The position numbers and the translations under genes were made by a program. Below the pieces are notes generated by a model. It was not told where the DNA came from and did not search any database. It saw only the letters and a list, made by a program, of their open reading frames with translations. From positions 2,013,620 through 2,077,619 of the forward strand of contig OY759352.1 of NCBI GenBank assembly GCA_963662305.1: a stretch of DNA of 64,000 bases. The letters run 5' to 3'. The stretch is from Desulfarculia bacterium (GTDB lineage Bacteria; Desulfobacterota; Desulfarculia; G963662305). This document shows positions 381-9,048 of this stretch, piece after piece (the stretch's first letter is position 1; every line of letters begins with the position of its first letter).

Positions 381-849
381 AGCCAGAGGATAACCCACCT
401 TGCCGGGCCATGGCCAGGACGATCACGGGAGGCTATATCTCACAATGAGAACCGACTACCCCAAGCAATTGAACAGTCACCTGATTCATTTGTTCTTTCG
501 TTGGGCCCGTTGTATCAGCACGGCGGGCACGGCCAGGAGCAGGGCGGGGAACCTGGAGTATATCGGCCAGCTCGGCATAAGGCAGGATAAGACGACCCAG
601 ACGCCGGACTTTCGCGATATGGCAAGCCTTGGCGCGGTTGTGGTCAGCCTGATCGAGCTTGCAGCTAAATGTTGCTGGTTGATCGATTTTCAAGAATAGG
701 ATAATAAATCCTTGAATTGAACGGTAACAGCTATCGTCGCAAAAACCGGATGGCCAAAAGGTAGAACCTTATTATTAACACCTCAACTGGCATACTTATA
801 TTCTGTCCATGTGGCAATTTATTGTAAAAGTATTATGACATATACTAAT

Positions 850-1635
850 CTATGGGTATGGACCCGTAGGTAACGCCTTCATCACTATTTTTGAAACATC
901 ATTTGGTGTTGGGACTTCATAGCTGCTGTCAACCCTTTTTCTTACTTTACAGAGCCCATAGAGTAAATCCGCCACAAGCATGCCAGATTCACGGAATTGG
1001 GCCCTCATTTTGCGAGCGCTGCCTATTCCATGCCGTTGCCCAAATTCAAAATTTGCCATCCGTTTAAAATCCTTGATCTGGTTAAATGTAACGCCCATAT
1101 CATCTGCTAGTTCACGCCAGCCAATGGCCCCTGCCTTCAAGAGCCATTCCATCCCTCTATACATATAAAATATAGATTCTACCGGATTGAGAAGAGCGTG
1201 GTACGCATCGTCAGCAGCCCTTCTGAATAAATCATTTTGACATATAAACCGATACCAATCAGTGAAAGAGTTGGTTCCCTCATCCGTCTCGCTTTTTTCG
1301 ATATCACGAAGATCTAAATGAGTGATAAAATTTACCTCATCAGATTCAATATTATTAAATATAACTCTTCCCATGGATGTTGCCTTGAACAACCCCAAAC
1401 CGCCCAAAAACAAAGCTGTAACAACCCTATTCACCATAAAATGACTATCTGCACACTCGTCCTCAAAATCAGAACCTAAACCAGTACCAATTCTTATCAA
1501 ATATGCTCTGGTGCCTCCGCAATTAATAAACCATTCTATACAAGTTTCTTTTTCAATATAATGAATATCAAGTTTTGGCACAAAAAAGCCCCAATCATTT
1601 ACTAAACTAAATACTGATGTCACAATATCTATCAT
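850..1635 (-). CDS. Hypothetical protein (island cargo, no recognisable domain)
   Basis: 261-aa ORF in AT-rich island, codon usage matches neighbouring island genes. Contains an R-x6-H pattern (RRAADDAYH) reminiscent of HEPN motifs, but this is weak. Confidence 0.5.
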   Translation of the reverse strand: MIDIVTSVFSLVNDWGFFVPKLDIHYIEKETCIEWFINCGGTRAYLIRIGTGLGSDFEDECADSHFMVNRVVTALFLGGLGLFKATSMGRVIFNNIESDEVNFITHLDLRDIEKSETDEGTNSFTDWYRFICQNDLFRRAADDAYHALLNPVESIFYMYRGMEWLLKAGAIGWRELADDMGVTFNQIKDFKRMANFEFGQRHGIGSARKMRAQFRESGMLVADLLYGLCKVRKRVDSSYEVPTPNDVSKIVMKALPTGPYP

Positions 1636-2057
1636 ATCGAAAATACTCCTAAGGCTAAGCAGTAATTAGATGTATGGGTTGAAATTACGGATCGACATAA
1701 GGCTTCCATTTTTAAAAGCACATCCACTATAATTAACATATTCAACTAAGCTTTCATTTTAAGAGGCTGCAACTGTTTCTAAATATGGTTGCGAATTATT
1801 TTGGTATCCAATATTTTCCTGATCTATAAATACTCCACTATCGGATAATTATGAGTAACTCTGCCCTCCCCAACACTACATCTCCCAGTCCTTACATTTT
1901 TCAAATCAGATCGGGGCACCAATAATAGACATAATGTTCATTGGAAACCAATGTTTTACTGCCCCTTATACGAAAAACAATGTGGATAAGGCAGCTTAAT
2001 TTCTGCTAACTTTTAGATGAAAGTTAACCCATCAAGAAGAGCCTCAGAAAATAGATC

Positions 2058-6901: not shown

Positions 6902-8120
6902 AGAAGTACCTATTTATTTGATCTAGAGCTGAATACACAGATTCTTTCCCAATTTGTCCAGCTACCGCTTTTTCATTCAAAAGAGCTATATTCAGGAACA
7001 ATTCTAAACCTTTCTCTTGAAGTATTCGTGGTATTAGGCCACCAAGGTCGTTCACATTTTCTGGAATTGACTCTAATTCTGGCCTGAATTTTAATGCTAA
7101 CCTAAATACTTCCATCACACCATCAGTTATACATTTTTGATTAATTAAATCACTTGATATCTCTTTGAGAATTGGTTCAATTGGACTTGTGTTCACATTG
7201 CCAAAACTTTTTGTATTTGCACCATATAAATAAACCTCTCCATCAGGTCTTATTCCCAAATTCATACCACCACCATACACACAAGGCCATAGAGAACCGT
7301 ATGCTTCTTTGGCCACATCGACACCTCCAGAAAAATCCATATATTTAGTATTTGCCACTCTTATATGTGTATCTAAAACAAGAGTTTTCCTTGTTACTAA
7401 AATTACTTCACCACCATTTAAAATCAATTTCTCTTGAAAGTTGCTAAGCTTGACCAAACGGCCATTCAATAACTTACTCAAATCGGACACGGACCTGTCA
7501 TTTGACAACAATGATCTTATTTCTATTTTTATTGGGAAATTTTGATTTTTGTTTTTGTATTTTACAAACCTCTTTATCGCTGCACATATATTAAGTAATG
7601 GAATTTTTTTTGAATGAAAGTCGTCAACACTCAACCTTAAAACGAATCTGCTTAAATATTTTGCTTTTTTTACTGAATCTACTATCGTCTTGAAAAACAG
7701 ATCGAACTCGTCTTTTGCTACTGACCAATGACCTGAAGTAGCCAAAACGATACTTTTGCAAGTGGAATTATTAACAATAAAATTAACCATATCCATATTA
7801 AGTGTTGGCTCTCCACCACCGGTTAAAAATAGTTCTTCAATATTCTTCCTTTTTACAAAGTCAAGACAGTGATTGATAGCTTTAAAACCAAGGCTTTTTG
7901 CGTTTTTTGAATTCTTACTATTGCTAATTGAATACTTACAGTGAGAACAGTTAACATTGCATAGATTTGTCAATTCAATGGTAAGTCTATATAAATTAAA
8001 AACATTATGGAATTTACTCATTACGTGGCCATAGAAGAATTCAGTTGCCCCCTTTATGTCACCAACTGAGTTGACAGTTTCTTTTATAAGACTGAGTTGT
8101 ATATTGAATTTGCTACACAT
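6891..8120 (-). CDS. Radical SAM protein (no SPASM/twitch domain evident)
   Basis: 409 aa; CxxxCxxC cluster motif CNVNCSHC followed by glycine-rich SAM motif LTGGGEPTL; AGGA 6 nt upstream of ATG at 8120; first gene of the island operon. Confidence 0.75.
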   Translation of the reverse strand: MCSKFNIQLSLIKETVNSVGDIKGATEFFYGHVMSKFHNVFNLYRLTIELTNLCNVNCSHCKYSISNSKNSKNAKSLGFKAINHCLDFVKRKNIEELFLTGGGEPTLNMDMVNFIVNNSTCKSIVLATSGHWSVAKDEFDLFFKTIVDSVKKAKYLSRFVLRLSVDDFHSKKIPLLNICAAIKRFVKYKNKNQNFPIKIEIRSLLSNDRSVSDLSKLLNGRLVKLSNFQEKLILNGGEVILVTRKTLVLDTHIRVANTKYMDFSGGVDVAKEAYGSLWPCVYGGGMNLGIRPDGEVYLYGANTKSFGNVNTSPIEPILKEISSDLINQKCITDGVMEVFRLALKFRPELESIPENVNDLGGLIPRILQEKGLELFLNIALLNEKAVAGQIGKESVYSALDQINRYFCEQ

Positions 8121-9048
8121 AACAAATCCTAATCAAAAACTGCTTTATAAAAAGCAACACCTATTTTATTATTTTCAAGAAACGAGCTAATGATTCTTTA
8201 ACTTTTCTGTTAGAGTATGAGTTTATGACCTTTTCCCCTTAAAAAATTAGGATTATATCCCAGTATCAGCTTAGTAATCGGATGTAAATCTAAAACTTCG
8301 ACGAACTCGTTGAATGGAAATCAAGGATGTACTTATGGTATAAATGCTCAGATTAACTTATCAAATTTGCTGAGCAGACTACACTCACCAGTCATCTCTC
8401 CTCTACACAGCCAGATTTGCCCATACTTGCATTATATATGAACGCGGTAATCGAAAACGATTATGGTGGTATCATCCTGAATTACCCCGGATTTAATTCC
8501 TAATCATTAGACTGGGCATAGGATGCCCTTTGAAACCTCCAGACTAAACACCGAACTTACGTCCCGTGATCGAAGCATTGAGCCTTCTTCAAAGACCTTA
8601 CAATGACTATACGAGTCATTTTGAGTATATCTCTTCATAAGTGCTCTGGTCAAACAATCGGATTAGCAATTGGTTTAGCCGAATAAAGAATCATAGTTAC
8701 GAGCCAAGAGAAAGCCGAAACAACATGAAAGTACCTCCGGCGGTAATAAGGAAGCACCCTGCCACCAGGGGGGCCGGAAGCCGAAACGGGCCCAGATGGA
8801 GAACTACCGGAAGCTGTTCAGCCTTATGATGGCCGGGGCTCTGGCACGTCTGGAGGCGGAGGCCAGGGTTAAGGGCTACCTGGATTAGGCCGGAGAGCAT
8901 AGCCAGGCGCACAGATCCGGCCCAGGAGAGACGATCTTAGGCCAATACATACCCACGGGTAAAAAGAGATCGGGCCTTTCAGACCAAATACGGAAGCCCG
9001 GTACCATGGGGGCCGGGTTTTCTATTCCCAGGGAGAGAGGCGGCGGGT

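Follow-up and report, generated by a model that had tools for sequence, protein, structure and literature searches.

The DNA analysed here is a stretch of 64,000 nucleotides from a Desulfarculia bacterium (contig OY759352.1 of assembly GCA_963662305.1, positions 2,013,620 to 2,077,619; hereafter the window). Near its start it carries an AT-rich block of minus-strand genes, five of which constitute a mobile operon (1829-8434) encoding a radical S-adenosylmethionine (SAM) enzyme, a STAND-type nucleoside triphosphatase (NTPase), a TehB-like SAM-dependent methyltransferase, a small membrane protein and a TIM barrel. A sequence-only reading of the window had described the AT-rich block (~700-8650, in otherwise GC-rich surroundings) and had placed six minus-strand genes in it, with domain assignments for all products except one of 261 residues. 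The GC profile bears out the block, with a GC fraction of 0.29-0.41 across 1001-8500 against 0.58-0.71 in the flanks (0.58 at 1-500, and back to 0.61-0.71 beyond 10500). All six open reading frames (ORFs) were found in it at the positions given, and the profile searches agree with the domain calls, including the lack of a recognisable domain in the 261-residue product.

A mobile five-gene cassette

When the whole window was compared by blastn with contig ena:ERZ21831104:ctg90647l (L002), to which a near-identical methyltransferase had led (P0009, 98%), a single match was obtained, namely a block of 6,606 bp with 99.05% identity (1829-8434 in the window and 5614-12219 in L002) whose edges are sharp in the alignments. 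The block encodes, in this order, the radical SAM enzyme, the NTPase, the methyltransferase, the membrane protein of 140 residues and the TIM barrel, and extends 314 bp beyond the radical SAM gene on the upstream side and 229 bp beyond the TIM-barrel gene on the downstream side. The reported overlapping or abutting starts and stops are indeed present: the radical SAM stop and the NTPase start overlap by 11 nucleotides, the membrane-protein stop and the TIM-barrel start by 4 nucleotides, and the other two gaps measure 4 and 11 nucleotides. The two copies of the block differ by 63 substitutions without indels, and each retains the five ORFs intact. The idea of diversifying selection in the HEAT repeats of the NTPase was rejected, as the substitutions are evenly spread. 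The block is thus an intact and mobile five-gene operon.

The sequence-only reading had proposed a six-gene module on an integrase/tRNA island. Of this proposal the five genes stand as a unit; the gene for the 261-residue product, the tyrosine integrase and the tRNA fragment lie outside the recurring block. As 1829-8434 recurs in L002 without these three, the moving unit consists of five genes, and the integrase and the tRNA fragment are part of the surrounding island. The window integrase is absent from L002, where unrelated integrase fragments occur. In L002 the cassette has a GC content of 32-39% within flanks of 45-55%, with HU-like genes on one side; on the other side (L002 12325-15793) an integrase fragment, a Shedu-type (SduA_C) gene and a ResIII/Helicase_C helicase follow, a defence-island setting unlike that of the window. 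The cassette in the window is best explained by a recent transfer from a donor of low GC content into the island that bears the integrase.

Terminal inverted or direct repeats and a target duplication were not found at the cassette ends. The ends (8375-8434 and 1829-1888) are purine-rich and hold loosely similar strings, GTGTAGAGGAGAGATGACTGG and CTGGGAGATGTAGTGTTGGGGAGGG, without an exact repeat of at least 8 nucleotides. A scan for promoters and terminators did not rise above the shuffled background (36 promoter-like sites against 30.4 expected).

The proteins encoded by the cassette

The radical SAM enzyme (6891-8120, minus strand, 409 residues) belongs to a rare, unnamed family characterized by CX3CX2C (C54, C58, C61), GGGEP and RLSxDxFH motifs. 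Pfam models (Radical_SAM, Fer4_12) match only its N-terminal half, which holds the CNVNCSHC and GGGEPT sequences. A word-indexed search of 5.8 billion proteins returned the enzyme itself, one relative with 38% identity (P0002) and two marginal matches, and a profile search that covered 1.84 billion representatives exhaustively returned 460 proteins at E<=1e-3, of which 21 at E<=1e-30, with matches that cover the whole length. In alignments of 30 and of 6 family sequences C54, C58 and C61 are the only invariant cysteines, and no cysteines for an auxiliary [4Fe-4S] cluster are conserved. The identity of a prokaryotic viperin (pVip) was rejected: the NCBIfam viperin_w_prok model reaches 26.2 bits (cut-off 180) over residues 50-119 and the PADLOC pVip model 23.3 bits over residues 48-118, so that a full-length match at the family level is lacking, and viperin is not the nearest structural neighbour either. 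That neighbour is EpeE, as judged from an AlphaFold2 model built on the 30-sequence alignment (a version built on 2 sequences had a pLDDT, i.e. predicted local distance difference test, of 50). The corresponding NCBIfam model, rSAM_yydG (TIGR04078), is among the best NCBIfam matches for this enzyme, at 36.3 bits against a cut-off of 300 and over residues 46-190 only, and also for a family member from Saccharibacteria-type contigs.

The NTPase (4052-6901, minus strand, 949 residues) combines an nSTAND1 nucleotide-binding oligomerization domain (residues 15-393, 53.9 bits with a cut-off of 27.1; Walker A GPLGVGKS, Walker B IYDQVE) with a C-terminal array of HEAT repeats at residues ~600-940 (HEAT_2 144.7 bits, together with HEAT, HEAT_PBS and HEAT_EZ), which is presumably the sensor. 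Pfam detects no DNA-binding domain in it, and none of the PADLOC models for Avs, AVAST or bNACHT matches; the only PADLOC hits, HEAT-ARM_XIII and WGR_XIII, concern the repeat region.

The methyltransferase (3418-4047, minus strand; Pfam TehB, 81.6 bits) is a class-I SAM-dependent enzyme whose start at 4047, and hence its length of 209 residues, follows from homologues and from the gene calls on the sister contig. Although its nearest relatives in the PDB are TehB structures (3m70, 2xva), it is not a TehB tellurite-resistance equivalog: the three NCBIfam TehB equivalog models score 92.7, 80.7 and 76.6 bits, far below their cut-offs (303, 218 and 219.5), and the protein falls in a distinct clade with Cys/His signatures of its own, i.e. 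GQYDxEYxxCPCFWG at the N-terminus and HPTSxxxHxHSxCR at the C-terminus. Of the PADLOC model mad2 it matches the methyltransferase domain only (E 1.4e-19, profile positions 275-417 of 492).

The membrane protein (2984-3406, minus strand; start at 3406, hence 140 residues, again by homologues and sister-contig gene calls) consists of a polar N-terminus with two tandem copies of a motif (see below) followed by two hydrophobic helices, and is presumed to be the effector. Its gene is translationally coupled to that of the last protein, a xylose-isomerase/endonuclease-IV-fold TIM barrel without the motif (2058-2987, minus strand, 309 residues; Pfam AP_endonuc_2, 52.3 bits). The TIM barrel weakly matches MJ1311 and, with E 0.11, Endo IV in the PDB, and also the NCBIfam model nfo (E 1.1e-5), and among 5.8e9 proteins it has one other homologue, with 30% identity and in an unrelated context.

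Conservation of the core across lineages

A recurrence of the gene order in unrelated genomes had been named as a check by the sequence-only reading, and such recurrence was found: the radical SAM enzyme, the nSTAND1/HEAT NTPase and the methyltransferase co-occur in at least four divergent lineages, between which the radical SAM enzymes are 23-38% identical. In the type-B loci (L003-5, L008-10 and one contig without DNA) the order is radical SAM enzyme (P0054, 433 residues), nSTAND1/HEAT NTPase (957 residues), methyltransferase, a 119-residue protein, a CHAT protease, a 79-residue protein and an HNH protein; the NTPase is 31% identical to that of the window over 885 residues and the methyltransferase 58%. 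The L051/L052 locus encodes a radical SAM enzyme (P0056, 23% identical to that of the window), a 173-residue protein, an nSTAND1/HEAT NTPase (956 residues) and a methyltransferase. In L049/L050 a 249-residue protein is followed by a radical SAM enzyme (P0055, 28%), a 174-residue protein and an nSTAND1 NTPase, where the contig ends. Orthologues of the window NTPase are thus found in the type-B loci and in L049 and L051. A fifth locus, L001, encodes instead a non-orthologous NB-ARC/TPR STAND protein, a methyltransferase (52%), a radical SAM enzyme (38%) and a second methyltransferase, with AbiEii, His_Phos_1 and caspase genes in the vicinity. Overall, the window methyltransferase is 52-58% identical to those of the other radical SAM/STAND loci.

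The small proteins of the window, L049 and L051 all end in hydrophobic segments. The first 50 residues of the window protein match the 174-residue protein of L049 (BLASTP E 2e-10), which in turn matches the 173-residue protein of L051 (E 1e-25); the latter two are encoded between the radical SAM and NTPase genes. EACC1, EAD or other Pfam adaptor domains were not found in these small proteins. The 119-residue and 165-residue proteins of the type-B loci were considered as further homologues of the window membrane protein, which was not supported. The 165-residue protein (L008 8842-9339, minus strand) is encoded divergently upstream of the type-B radical SAM gene; it contains a repeat rich in Gly, Asn and Val (GNVNITGTQGNISGVVAAGENQNMTGVAIGAISGAV) and is hydrophobic at its C-terminus.

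The linkage between the radical SAM enzyme, the nSTAND1/HEAT NTPase, the methyltransferase and a motif-tagged protein is hence conserved, while the effector-type neighbours swap between lineages. In other words, four of the five cassette genes are conserved between lineages and the TIM barrel is the exception. The latter was rejected as a conserved component since it is absent from all other loci of the module, and is probably an optional, cassette-specific add-on. The module and the relatives of its enzymes are found in contexts suggestive of biological conflict, i.e. near CHAT protease, HNH, AbiEii, caspase and Shedu genes, in a WYL/JukA-like/PDC-M40B operon and near AbpA.

The enzyme pair and its relatives outside the STAND loci

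In the Saccharibacteria-type contigs L006, L011, L012 and L047 the methyltransferase gene is directly followed by that of a radical SAM family member and there is no STAND NTPase. The pair is preceded by a TatD-linked radical SAM enzyme (TIGR04038, 250 bits against a cut-off of 129.7) and by a pVip homologue (PADLOC E 5.7e-34), and an APH-type kinase or ThyA-like gene also occurs in these clusters. Their order is: a protein of ~400 residues, the TatD-linked radical SAM enzyme, the pVip-like radical SAM enzyme, the TehB-like methyltransferase, the family member of ~500 residues and the APH-type kinase/ThyA-like protein. The clusters (L012 6599-13218, L011 7048-12169, L006 2342-7585 and L047 8546-13151) adjoin an Asp/Asn-tRNA synthetase gene.

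The methyltransferase clade also occurs without the radical SAM enzyme, namely in operons (L007 8493-11994, L015 8454-12140 and L013 4418-6958) that encode a HARE-HTH domain fused to a P-loop (AAA_17/ADK-like) kinase, the methyltransferase, SIR2 (SIR2_2) and a Ham1-like NTP pyrophosphatase. In L007 such an operon adjoins genes for a Dam methylase and a 621-residue PNP_UDP_1 protein. These operons look like another uncharacterised, nucleotide-centred conflict system.

Members of the radical SAM family are in turn fused to PRTase/UPRTase, His_Phos_1, PHP, carbamoyltransferase and further radical SAM domains. On three enterobacterial plasmids a family member (hhalign probability 99.8%, E 5.7e-29) and a PHP phosphatase are encoded in a WYL/JukA-like/PDC-M40B operon beside DUF262 or AbpA genes. 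In two of these (L056, NZ_CP114775.1 70401-87501, at 4187-11897; L057, NZ_CP056645.1, at 4068-11780) the order is WYL, JukA-like, PDC-M40B membrane protein, radical SAM enzyme, PHP 'histidinol-phosphatase' and two hypothetical genes; the radical SAM and PHP genes of this operon are not in PADLOC. Metagenome scans gave no match with the NTPase as query and only two distant loci, without the partner genes, with the radical SAM enzyme. A viral origin of the module was rejected, as IMG/VR contains no relatives of the methyltransferase clade or the radical SAM enzyme.

The fusions, the neighbourhoods and the existence of loci with the enzyme pair and without the motif together make us lean towards a nucleotide-like substrate. 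It may therefore be, on admittedly slight grounds, that the radical SAM enzyme and the methyltransferase make or modify a nucleotide-like molecule.

A short motif in the NTPase and the putative effectors

A motif of 16 residues, Q-x-[IV]-G-x-[IV]-x-x-S-x-x-[IV]-x-[IVL]-x-Q, is present once in the NTPase between Walker A and Walker B (Q113-Q128, QSVGDILSSKKVDINQ; 6518-6565, minus strand) and twice in tandem, with a spacing of 23 residues, in the membrane protein (Q7-Q22, QYIGNITNSKDINIKQ, and Q30-Q45, QTVEDIHNSQKIEVIQ; 3272-3388, minus strand). A hidden Markov model (HMM) made from the N-termini of the small proteins alone has as its next-best matches the type-B CHAT protease and the NTPases. 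An HMM of a single repeat, trained only on the six repeats of the small proteins, was used to scan 16,893 six-frame ORFs; the window NTPase is its best match outside the training set (E 0.0048), the type-B NTPase follows (E 0.021-0.042), and noise starts at E 2.3. As a regular expression the motif matches every nSTAND1/HEAT NTPase once, and each small membrane protein, like the CHAT protease, twice at its N-terminus. Its 26 matches within a total of 1.14 M six-frame residues compare with 0.02 expected from shuffled sequences, statistics that are partly post hoc given that the expression was written after the instances had been seen. Neither method has matches beyond these NTPases, the small membrane proteins and the CHAT protease of the type-B loci. 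The L051 NTPase is matched as well, although L051 was not used in deriving the motif.

Within the NTPases the position of the motif is the same in all lineages (~60 residues after Walker A and ~35 before Walker B), and Q113, G116, S121, V124 and Q128 are among the only 34 invariant columns in the alignment of NTPases from four lineages. Taken together, these data give moderate support to a motif that the NTPase and the putative effector have in common. Such a motif could mediate the recruitment or activation of the effector, be it the protein with two transmembrane helices or the CHAT protease.

The type-B NTPase gene is undisturbed in L003 and L009, but several metagenome samples have it interrupted at the very residue with which the motif starts ('...SSQR|IGSIAESSNVEINQ'; L004 1-110, L005 1-140, L008 11640-11759 and L010 2200-2322). 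The sequence CGCAGAGAA is present at both junctions and resembles the 9-bp target duplication of an insertion sequence (IS)-type element. If such an insertion is real, the system would be knocked out in part of the population.

A putative conflict system with an NLR-like sensor

We read 1829-8434 as a self-contained mobile operon for a conflict system of the NLR (NOD-like receptor) or STAND type, most probably one that acts against phages or by abortive infection, and consider this reading just as probably right as wrong. By analogy with its family, the NTPase would bind an invader-derived ligand with its HEAT array, and would then switch and oligomerise. It might subsequently engage the effector via the short, beta-strand-type motif of which it has one copy and the effector N-terminus two; the effector would be a membrane protein with two transmembrane helices that damages the membrane in the case of the window, and the CHAT protease in the sister lineage. 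The radical SAM enzyme and the TehB-like methyltransferase, which are always linked, could form a two-step enzymatic arm that most likely makes or alters a nucleotide-like small molecule, either as a second, viperin-like antiviral output or as a molecule that the system needs. The TIM barrel, as an add-on specific to this cassette, might have that metabolite, or else DNA, as its substrate.

Several observations weigh against this interpretation. PADLOC recognises no system among the six proteins, which was one of the checks proposed by the sequence-only reading, and gives domain-level matches of a generic kind only (pVip, over the N-terminal 70 residues of the radical SAM enzyme, HEAT-ARM and mad2). 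The NTPase has no fused N-terminal effector domain, its nSTAND1 match starting at residue 15. The evidence for the motif is moderate, i.e. HMM E-values of 0.005-0.04 in two lineages with the other instances resting on a post hoc regular expression, and the motif is located within the NTPase domain, a position not shared by known adaptor or amyloid motifs. The Saccharibacteria pair of methyltransferase and radical SAM enzyme, beside aminoacyl-tRNA synthetase genes and without a STAND protein, is equally compatible with housekeeping. Finally, the system is very rare, being present in a handful of lineages in billions of proteins, and the metagenome and viral scans added nothing.

The best alternative, although we think it unlikely, is a modification reminiscent of ribosomally synthesised and post-translationally modified peptides (RiPPs), in which the EpeE-like radical SAM enzyme and the methyltransferase covalently modify the motif or the whole small membrane protein, for instance by epimerising conserved Ile/Val residues and methylating Gln/Asn/Ser. 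The modified peptide would then be a toxin, or its modification would gate the motif-driven assembly with the NTPase. The rank of rSAM_yydG among the matches of the enzyme is in line with this, as is the presence in three lineages of a small protein with a repeat-bearing N-terminus rich in I/V/Q/N/S adjoining the radical SAM enzyme; a radical SAM enzyme likely to modify a peptide-effector has moreover been proposed for another NTPase conflict system (Kaur et al. 2020, PMC7159879). These points are countered by the absence of conserved auxiliary-cluster cysteines in the family, where the three cysteines of the CX3CX2C motif alone are invariant, and of a protease or an ABC exporter from the window. 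As to a precursor, the window has no short one, while the 140-residue membrane protein with its conserved, repeat-bearing N-terminus is encoded in the same operon. The supposed substrate, of 140-174 residues and with transmembrane helices, is unlike a RiPP precursor, and the fusions and other neighbourhoods point to nucleotides. The enzyme pair, moreover, also occurs at loci without a detectable motif or small protein (L001, L006, L011, L012 and L047). Because there is no motif at the methyltransferase-radical SAM loci without STAND, nor at the plasmid or methyltransferase-only loci, the motif is not the universal substrate of the enzyme pair. For the conflict system itself, we give little credence to the related idea that the two enzymes act on the motif of the NTPase and/or the effector (again e.g. 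by epimerisation of conserved Ile/Val and methylation of Gln/Asn/Ser). If it were true, the modification would license an NLR-type sensor to hand over to a membrane or protease effector in a templated manner, of an amyloid-like or beta-solenoid-like kind, and bacterial immunity would have its first example of a prion-like signalling step under post-translational control.

A role outside defence appears distinctly unlikely. Here the radical SAM enzyme, the methyltransferase and the TIM barrel would make or repair a modified nucleotide, a cofactor or an RNA base for the cell, with the STAND/HEAT protein as regulator or chaperone. That the TIM-barrel family includes sugar-phosphate isomerases, that HEAT_PBS-type repeats occur in lyases and chaperone-like proteins, and that the Saccharibacteria-type pair sits in a conserved cluster beside Asp/Asn-tRNA synthetase genes would fit such a role. 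Against it, the cassette is compositionally foreign in two unrelated contexts, its extremely patchy and rare occurrence does not resemble that of housekeeping genes, and the STAND-linked versions have effector-type neighbours that swap (CHAT, HNH, caspase and AbiEii); the NTPase lacks a DNA-binding domain and appears to be disrupted by an IS-like element in one population, and even in Saccharibacteria the partner radical SAM enzyme is itself a viperin homologue. The homology searches, which the sequence-only reading had suggested with a characterised housekeeping pathway in mind, placed none of the genes in one.

Very improbable, in our view, is a system that resembles restriction-modification, with the methyltransferase (perhaps together with the radical SAM enzyme) marking host DNA or RNA, the TIM barrel cutting nucleic acid that lacks the mark or is abnormally modified, and the NTPase acting as motor or sensor. 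A TIM barrel that is absent from all other lineages of the module is difficult to reconcile with this, in spite of its weak similarity to deoxyribonuclease IV. The methyltransferase does match the methyltransferase domain of mad2, and HARE-HTH and a Dam methylase neighbour its clade elsewhere, but the enzyme is of the small TehB/TPMT type without a domain for DNA-target recognition. No signature protein of restriction-modification, BREX, DISARM, Dnd, Dpd or MADS was detected with PADLOC apart from that generic mad2 match. That there is no functional unit at all, i.e. that the genes are chance neighbours or decaying remnants of island cargo, is hardly credible: the family is very rare and the promoter and terminator scans stay at background, but gene order is maintained at 23-38% protein identity in at least four lineages, start and stop codons overlap, and the five ORFs are intact in two diverged copies.

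Relation to known systems

The claim that the block represents an uncharacterised defence or modification system holds in so far as a conflict system is the best reading, given the conflict-type contexts; it needs qualification in that the combination of a STAND protein with a radical SAM accessory has a precedent. To protect against some phages KpAvs2 depends on the radical SAM accessory Avap1, which does not behave as a viperin and whose role is unexplained (Béchon et al. 2024, PMC11564622). Like the cassette, the KpAvs2-Avap1-Avap2 operon combines a STAND NTPase that has a long C-terminal sensor with a stand-alone radical SAM enzyme, and it is in this arrangement that Avap1 and the window enzyme are analogous. 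The differences are that KpAvs2 has a fused N-terminal Mrr nuclease, whereas the window NTPase has no fused effector; that the KpAvs2 NTPase is of the Avs2 type rather than nSTAND1/HEAT; that its second accessory, Avap2, is a DUF6375 protein (PF19902) for which there is no match among the six window proteins; and that a methyltransferase and a motif-tagged membrane or CHAT effector are lacking. With antiviral STAND proteins in general (Avs/AVAST) the window NTPase shares the NTPase domain with Walker A and B and the C-terminal repeats, but not the fused N-terminal effector.

Similarity is also found with the nSTAND1 conflict systems described by Kaur, Burroughs, Iyer and Aravind (PMC7159879, PMC8195603), which also have repeat sensors, effectors encoded by adjacent genes and coupled via shared modules, CHAT or caspase domains and effector swapping. 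One motif copy on the sensor and two on the effector, in adjacent genes and with swappable effector bodies, recall the EAD coupling (PMC7159879), although none of the adaptors of Kaur et al. (EAD, Death-like, TRADD-N and EACC1) was detected in the cassette. A pair of a radical SAM enzyme and a TehB-like methyltransferase with nSTAND1 is not described in either paper (PMC7159879, PMC8195603). A full-text literature search likewise returned nothing that pairs nSTAND1 with radical SAM, nor radical SAM with TehB in gene neighbourhoods.

The pVips have the radical SAM enzyme in a defence context, and the idea of a modified-nucleotide product, in common with the cassette, and a true pVip homologue neighbours the enzyme pair in the Saccharibacteria clusters. 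As to the YydG/EpeE system of Bacillus subtilis, a small membrane-active product is plausible in both, and EpeE is the nearest solved fold, but with an identity of only 16-17%. The cassette moreover lacks the auxiliary Fe-S cysteines, the short precursor, the YydH protease and the YydIJ transporter, and has the STAND NTPase and the methyltransferase instead.

The amyloid signalling pairs of NLRs offer a further comparison. In the fungal case, the effector HET-s has two repeats (r1 and r2) and the sensor NWD2 one (r0), a two-to-one layout that is equal to that of the cassette. In such pairs (NWD2/HET-S; BASS1-11, Bab/Agp; bioRxiv 10.1101/2020.01.06.895854, 10.1101/2024.11.07.622273) a short, beta-prone motif is likewise present in the sensor and in the product of an adjacent gene, and the effector side likewise targets the membrane or carries CHAT. 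Their motifs, however, are located at the NLR N-terminus and the effector C-terminus, whereas the cassette has an internal sensor copy (residues 113-128) and N-terminal effector copies (residues 7-45). Nor does the cassette motif agree with signatures of the G-phi-Q-phi-G type given for BASS3/RHIM; a Bell or HeLo domain is absent, and amyloid formation by the motif is a candidate property only. Finally, the NLR amyloid systems have no known obligatory radical SAM and methyltransferase partners.

What is already known, then, are NLR-like STAND conflict systems as a kind, and a stand-alone radical SAM accessory with one experimental precedent, KpAvs2-Avap1. As far as our searches show, the obligatory pair of radical SAM enzyme and TehB-like methyltransferase, this family of radical SAM enzymes and the layout with an internal sensor motif and N-terminal effector motifs are undescribed. 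STAND/NLR-type sensors are central to the immunity of bacteria, fungi, plants and animals, and the way in which they hand over the signal to separately encoded effectors is known for few types of adaptor. The cassette constitutes a compact test case of 6.6 kb in which an NLR-like sensor is invariably linked with two SAM-using enzymes and with an effector that appears to share its motif. Solving it could bring to light a novel metabolite with an antiviral or signalling role, the product of a radical SAM family without a characterised member, or alternatively a control by enzymes over the activation of effectors through the motif. A solution would also provide a handle on the unexplained requirement for Avap1 in KpAvs2, on the Saccharibacteria clusters with the pVip-like and TatD-linked enzymes and the pair, on the HARE-HTH-kinase/methyltransferase/SIR2/Ham1 operons, and on the radical SAM-PHP operons in the defence islands of enterobacterial plasmids.

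The surrounding island and other features of the window

The tyrosine integrase at 9049-10242 (plus strand) that had been noted beside the block is confirmed by Pfam (Phage_integrase, 119 bits). The tRNA 3' fragment fared less clearly: a tRNA-like 3' end can be read from the sequence at 10320-10370 (plus strand), with a variable-arm-like hairpin, a T-loop (GGTTCAAATCC) and an acceptor strand with CCA, but it is called neither by ARAGORN nor by Rfam (zero matches over 1-14000). It is a possible remnant of the attachment (att) site of the island. Of the features of a tRNA-integrated island, the integrase, the tRNA-like fragment and the deviant GC content are present; a second copy of the fragment, an att repeat or an intact tRNA at the island was not found within the window, and the island may extend past the window start.

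The gene for the 261-residue product (850-1635, minus strand) is separated from the TIM-barrel operon by 422 bp. The product has no match in Pfam, PADLOC, PHROGs, plasmids or any other module locus and forms a cluster with a single member. It was rejected as a sixth component, being encoded outside the recurring block and without a homologue at the other loci, and is considered neighbouring cargo. Because this ORF is AT-rich and yet lies outside the shared cassette, the island holds two or more separately acquired low-GC pieces.

At the very start of the window (3-380, minus strand) an ORF that runs off the edge encodes a product with a signal peptide and with a 'VIDGDS...VRLIEIDAPE' signature, which we take to be staphylococcal-nuclease-like. 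The sole tRNA called in the window is a tRNA-Arg(GCG) at 32505-32601 (minus strand), whose 97 nucleotides are unusually many for a bacterial tRNA-Arg and could stem from an intron, an insertion or a mis-call.

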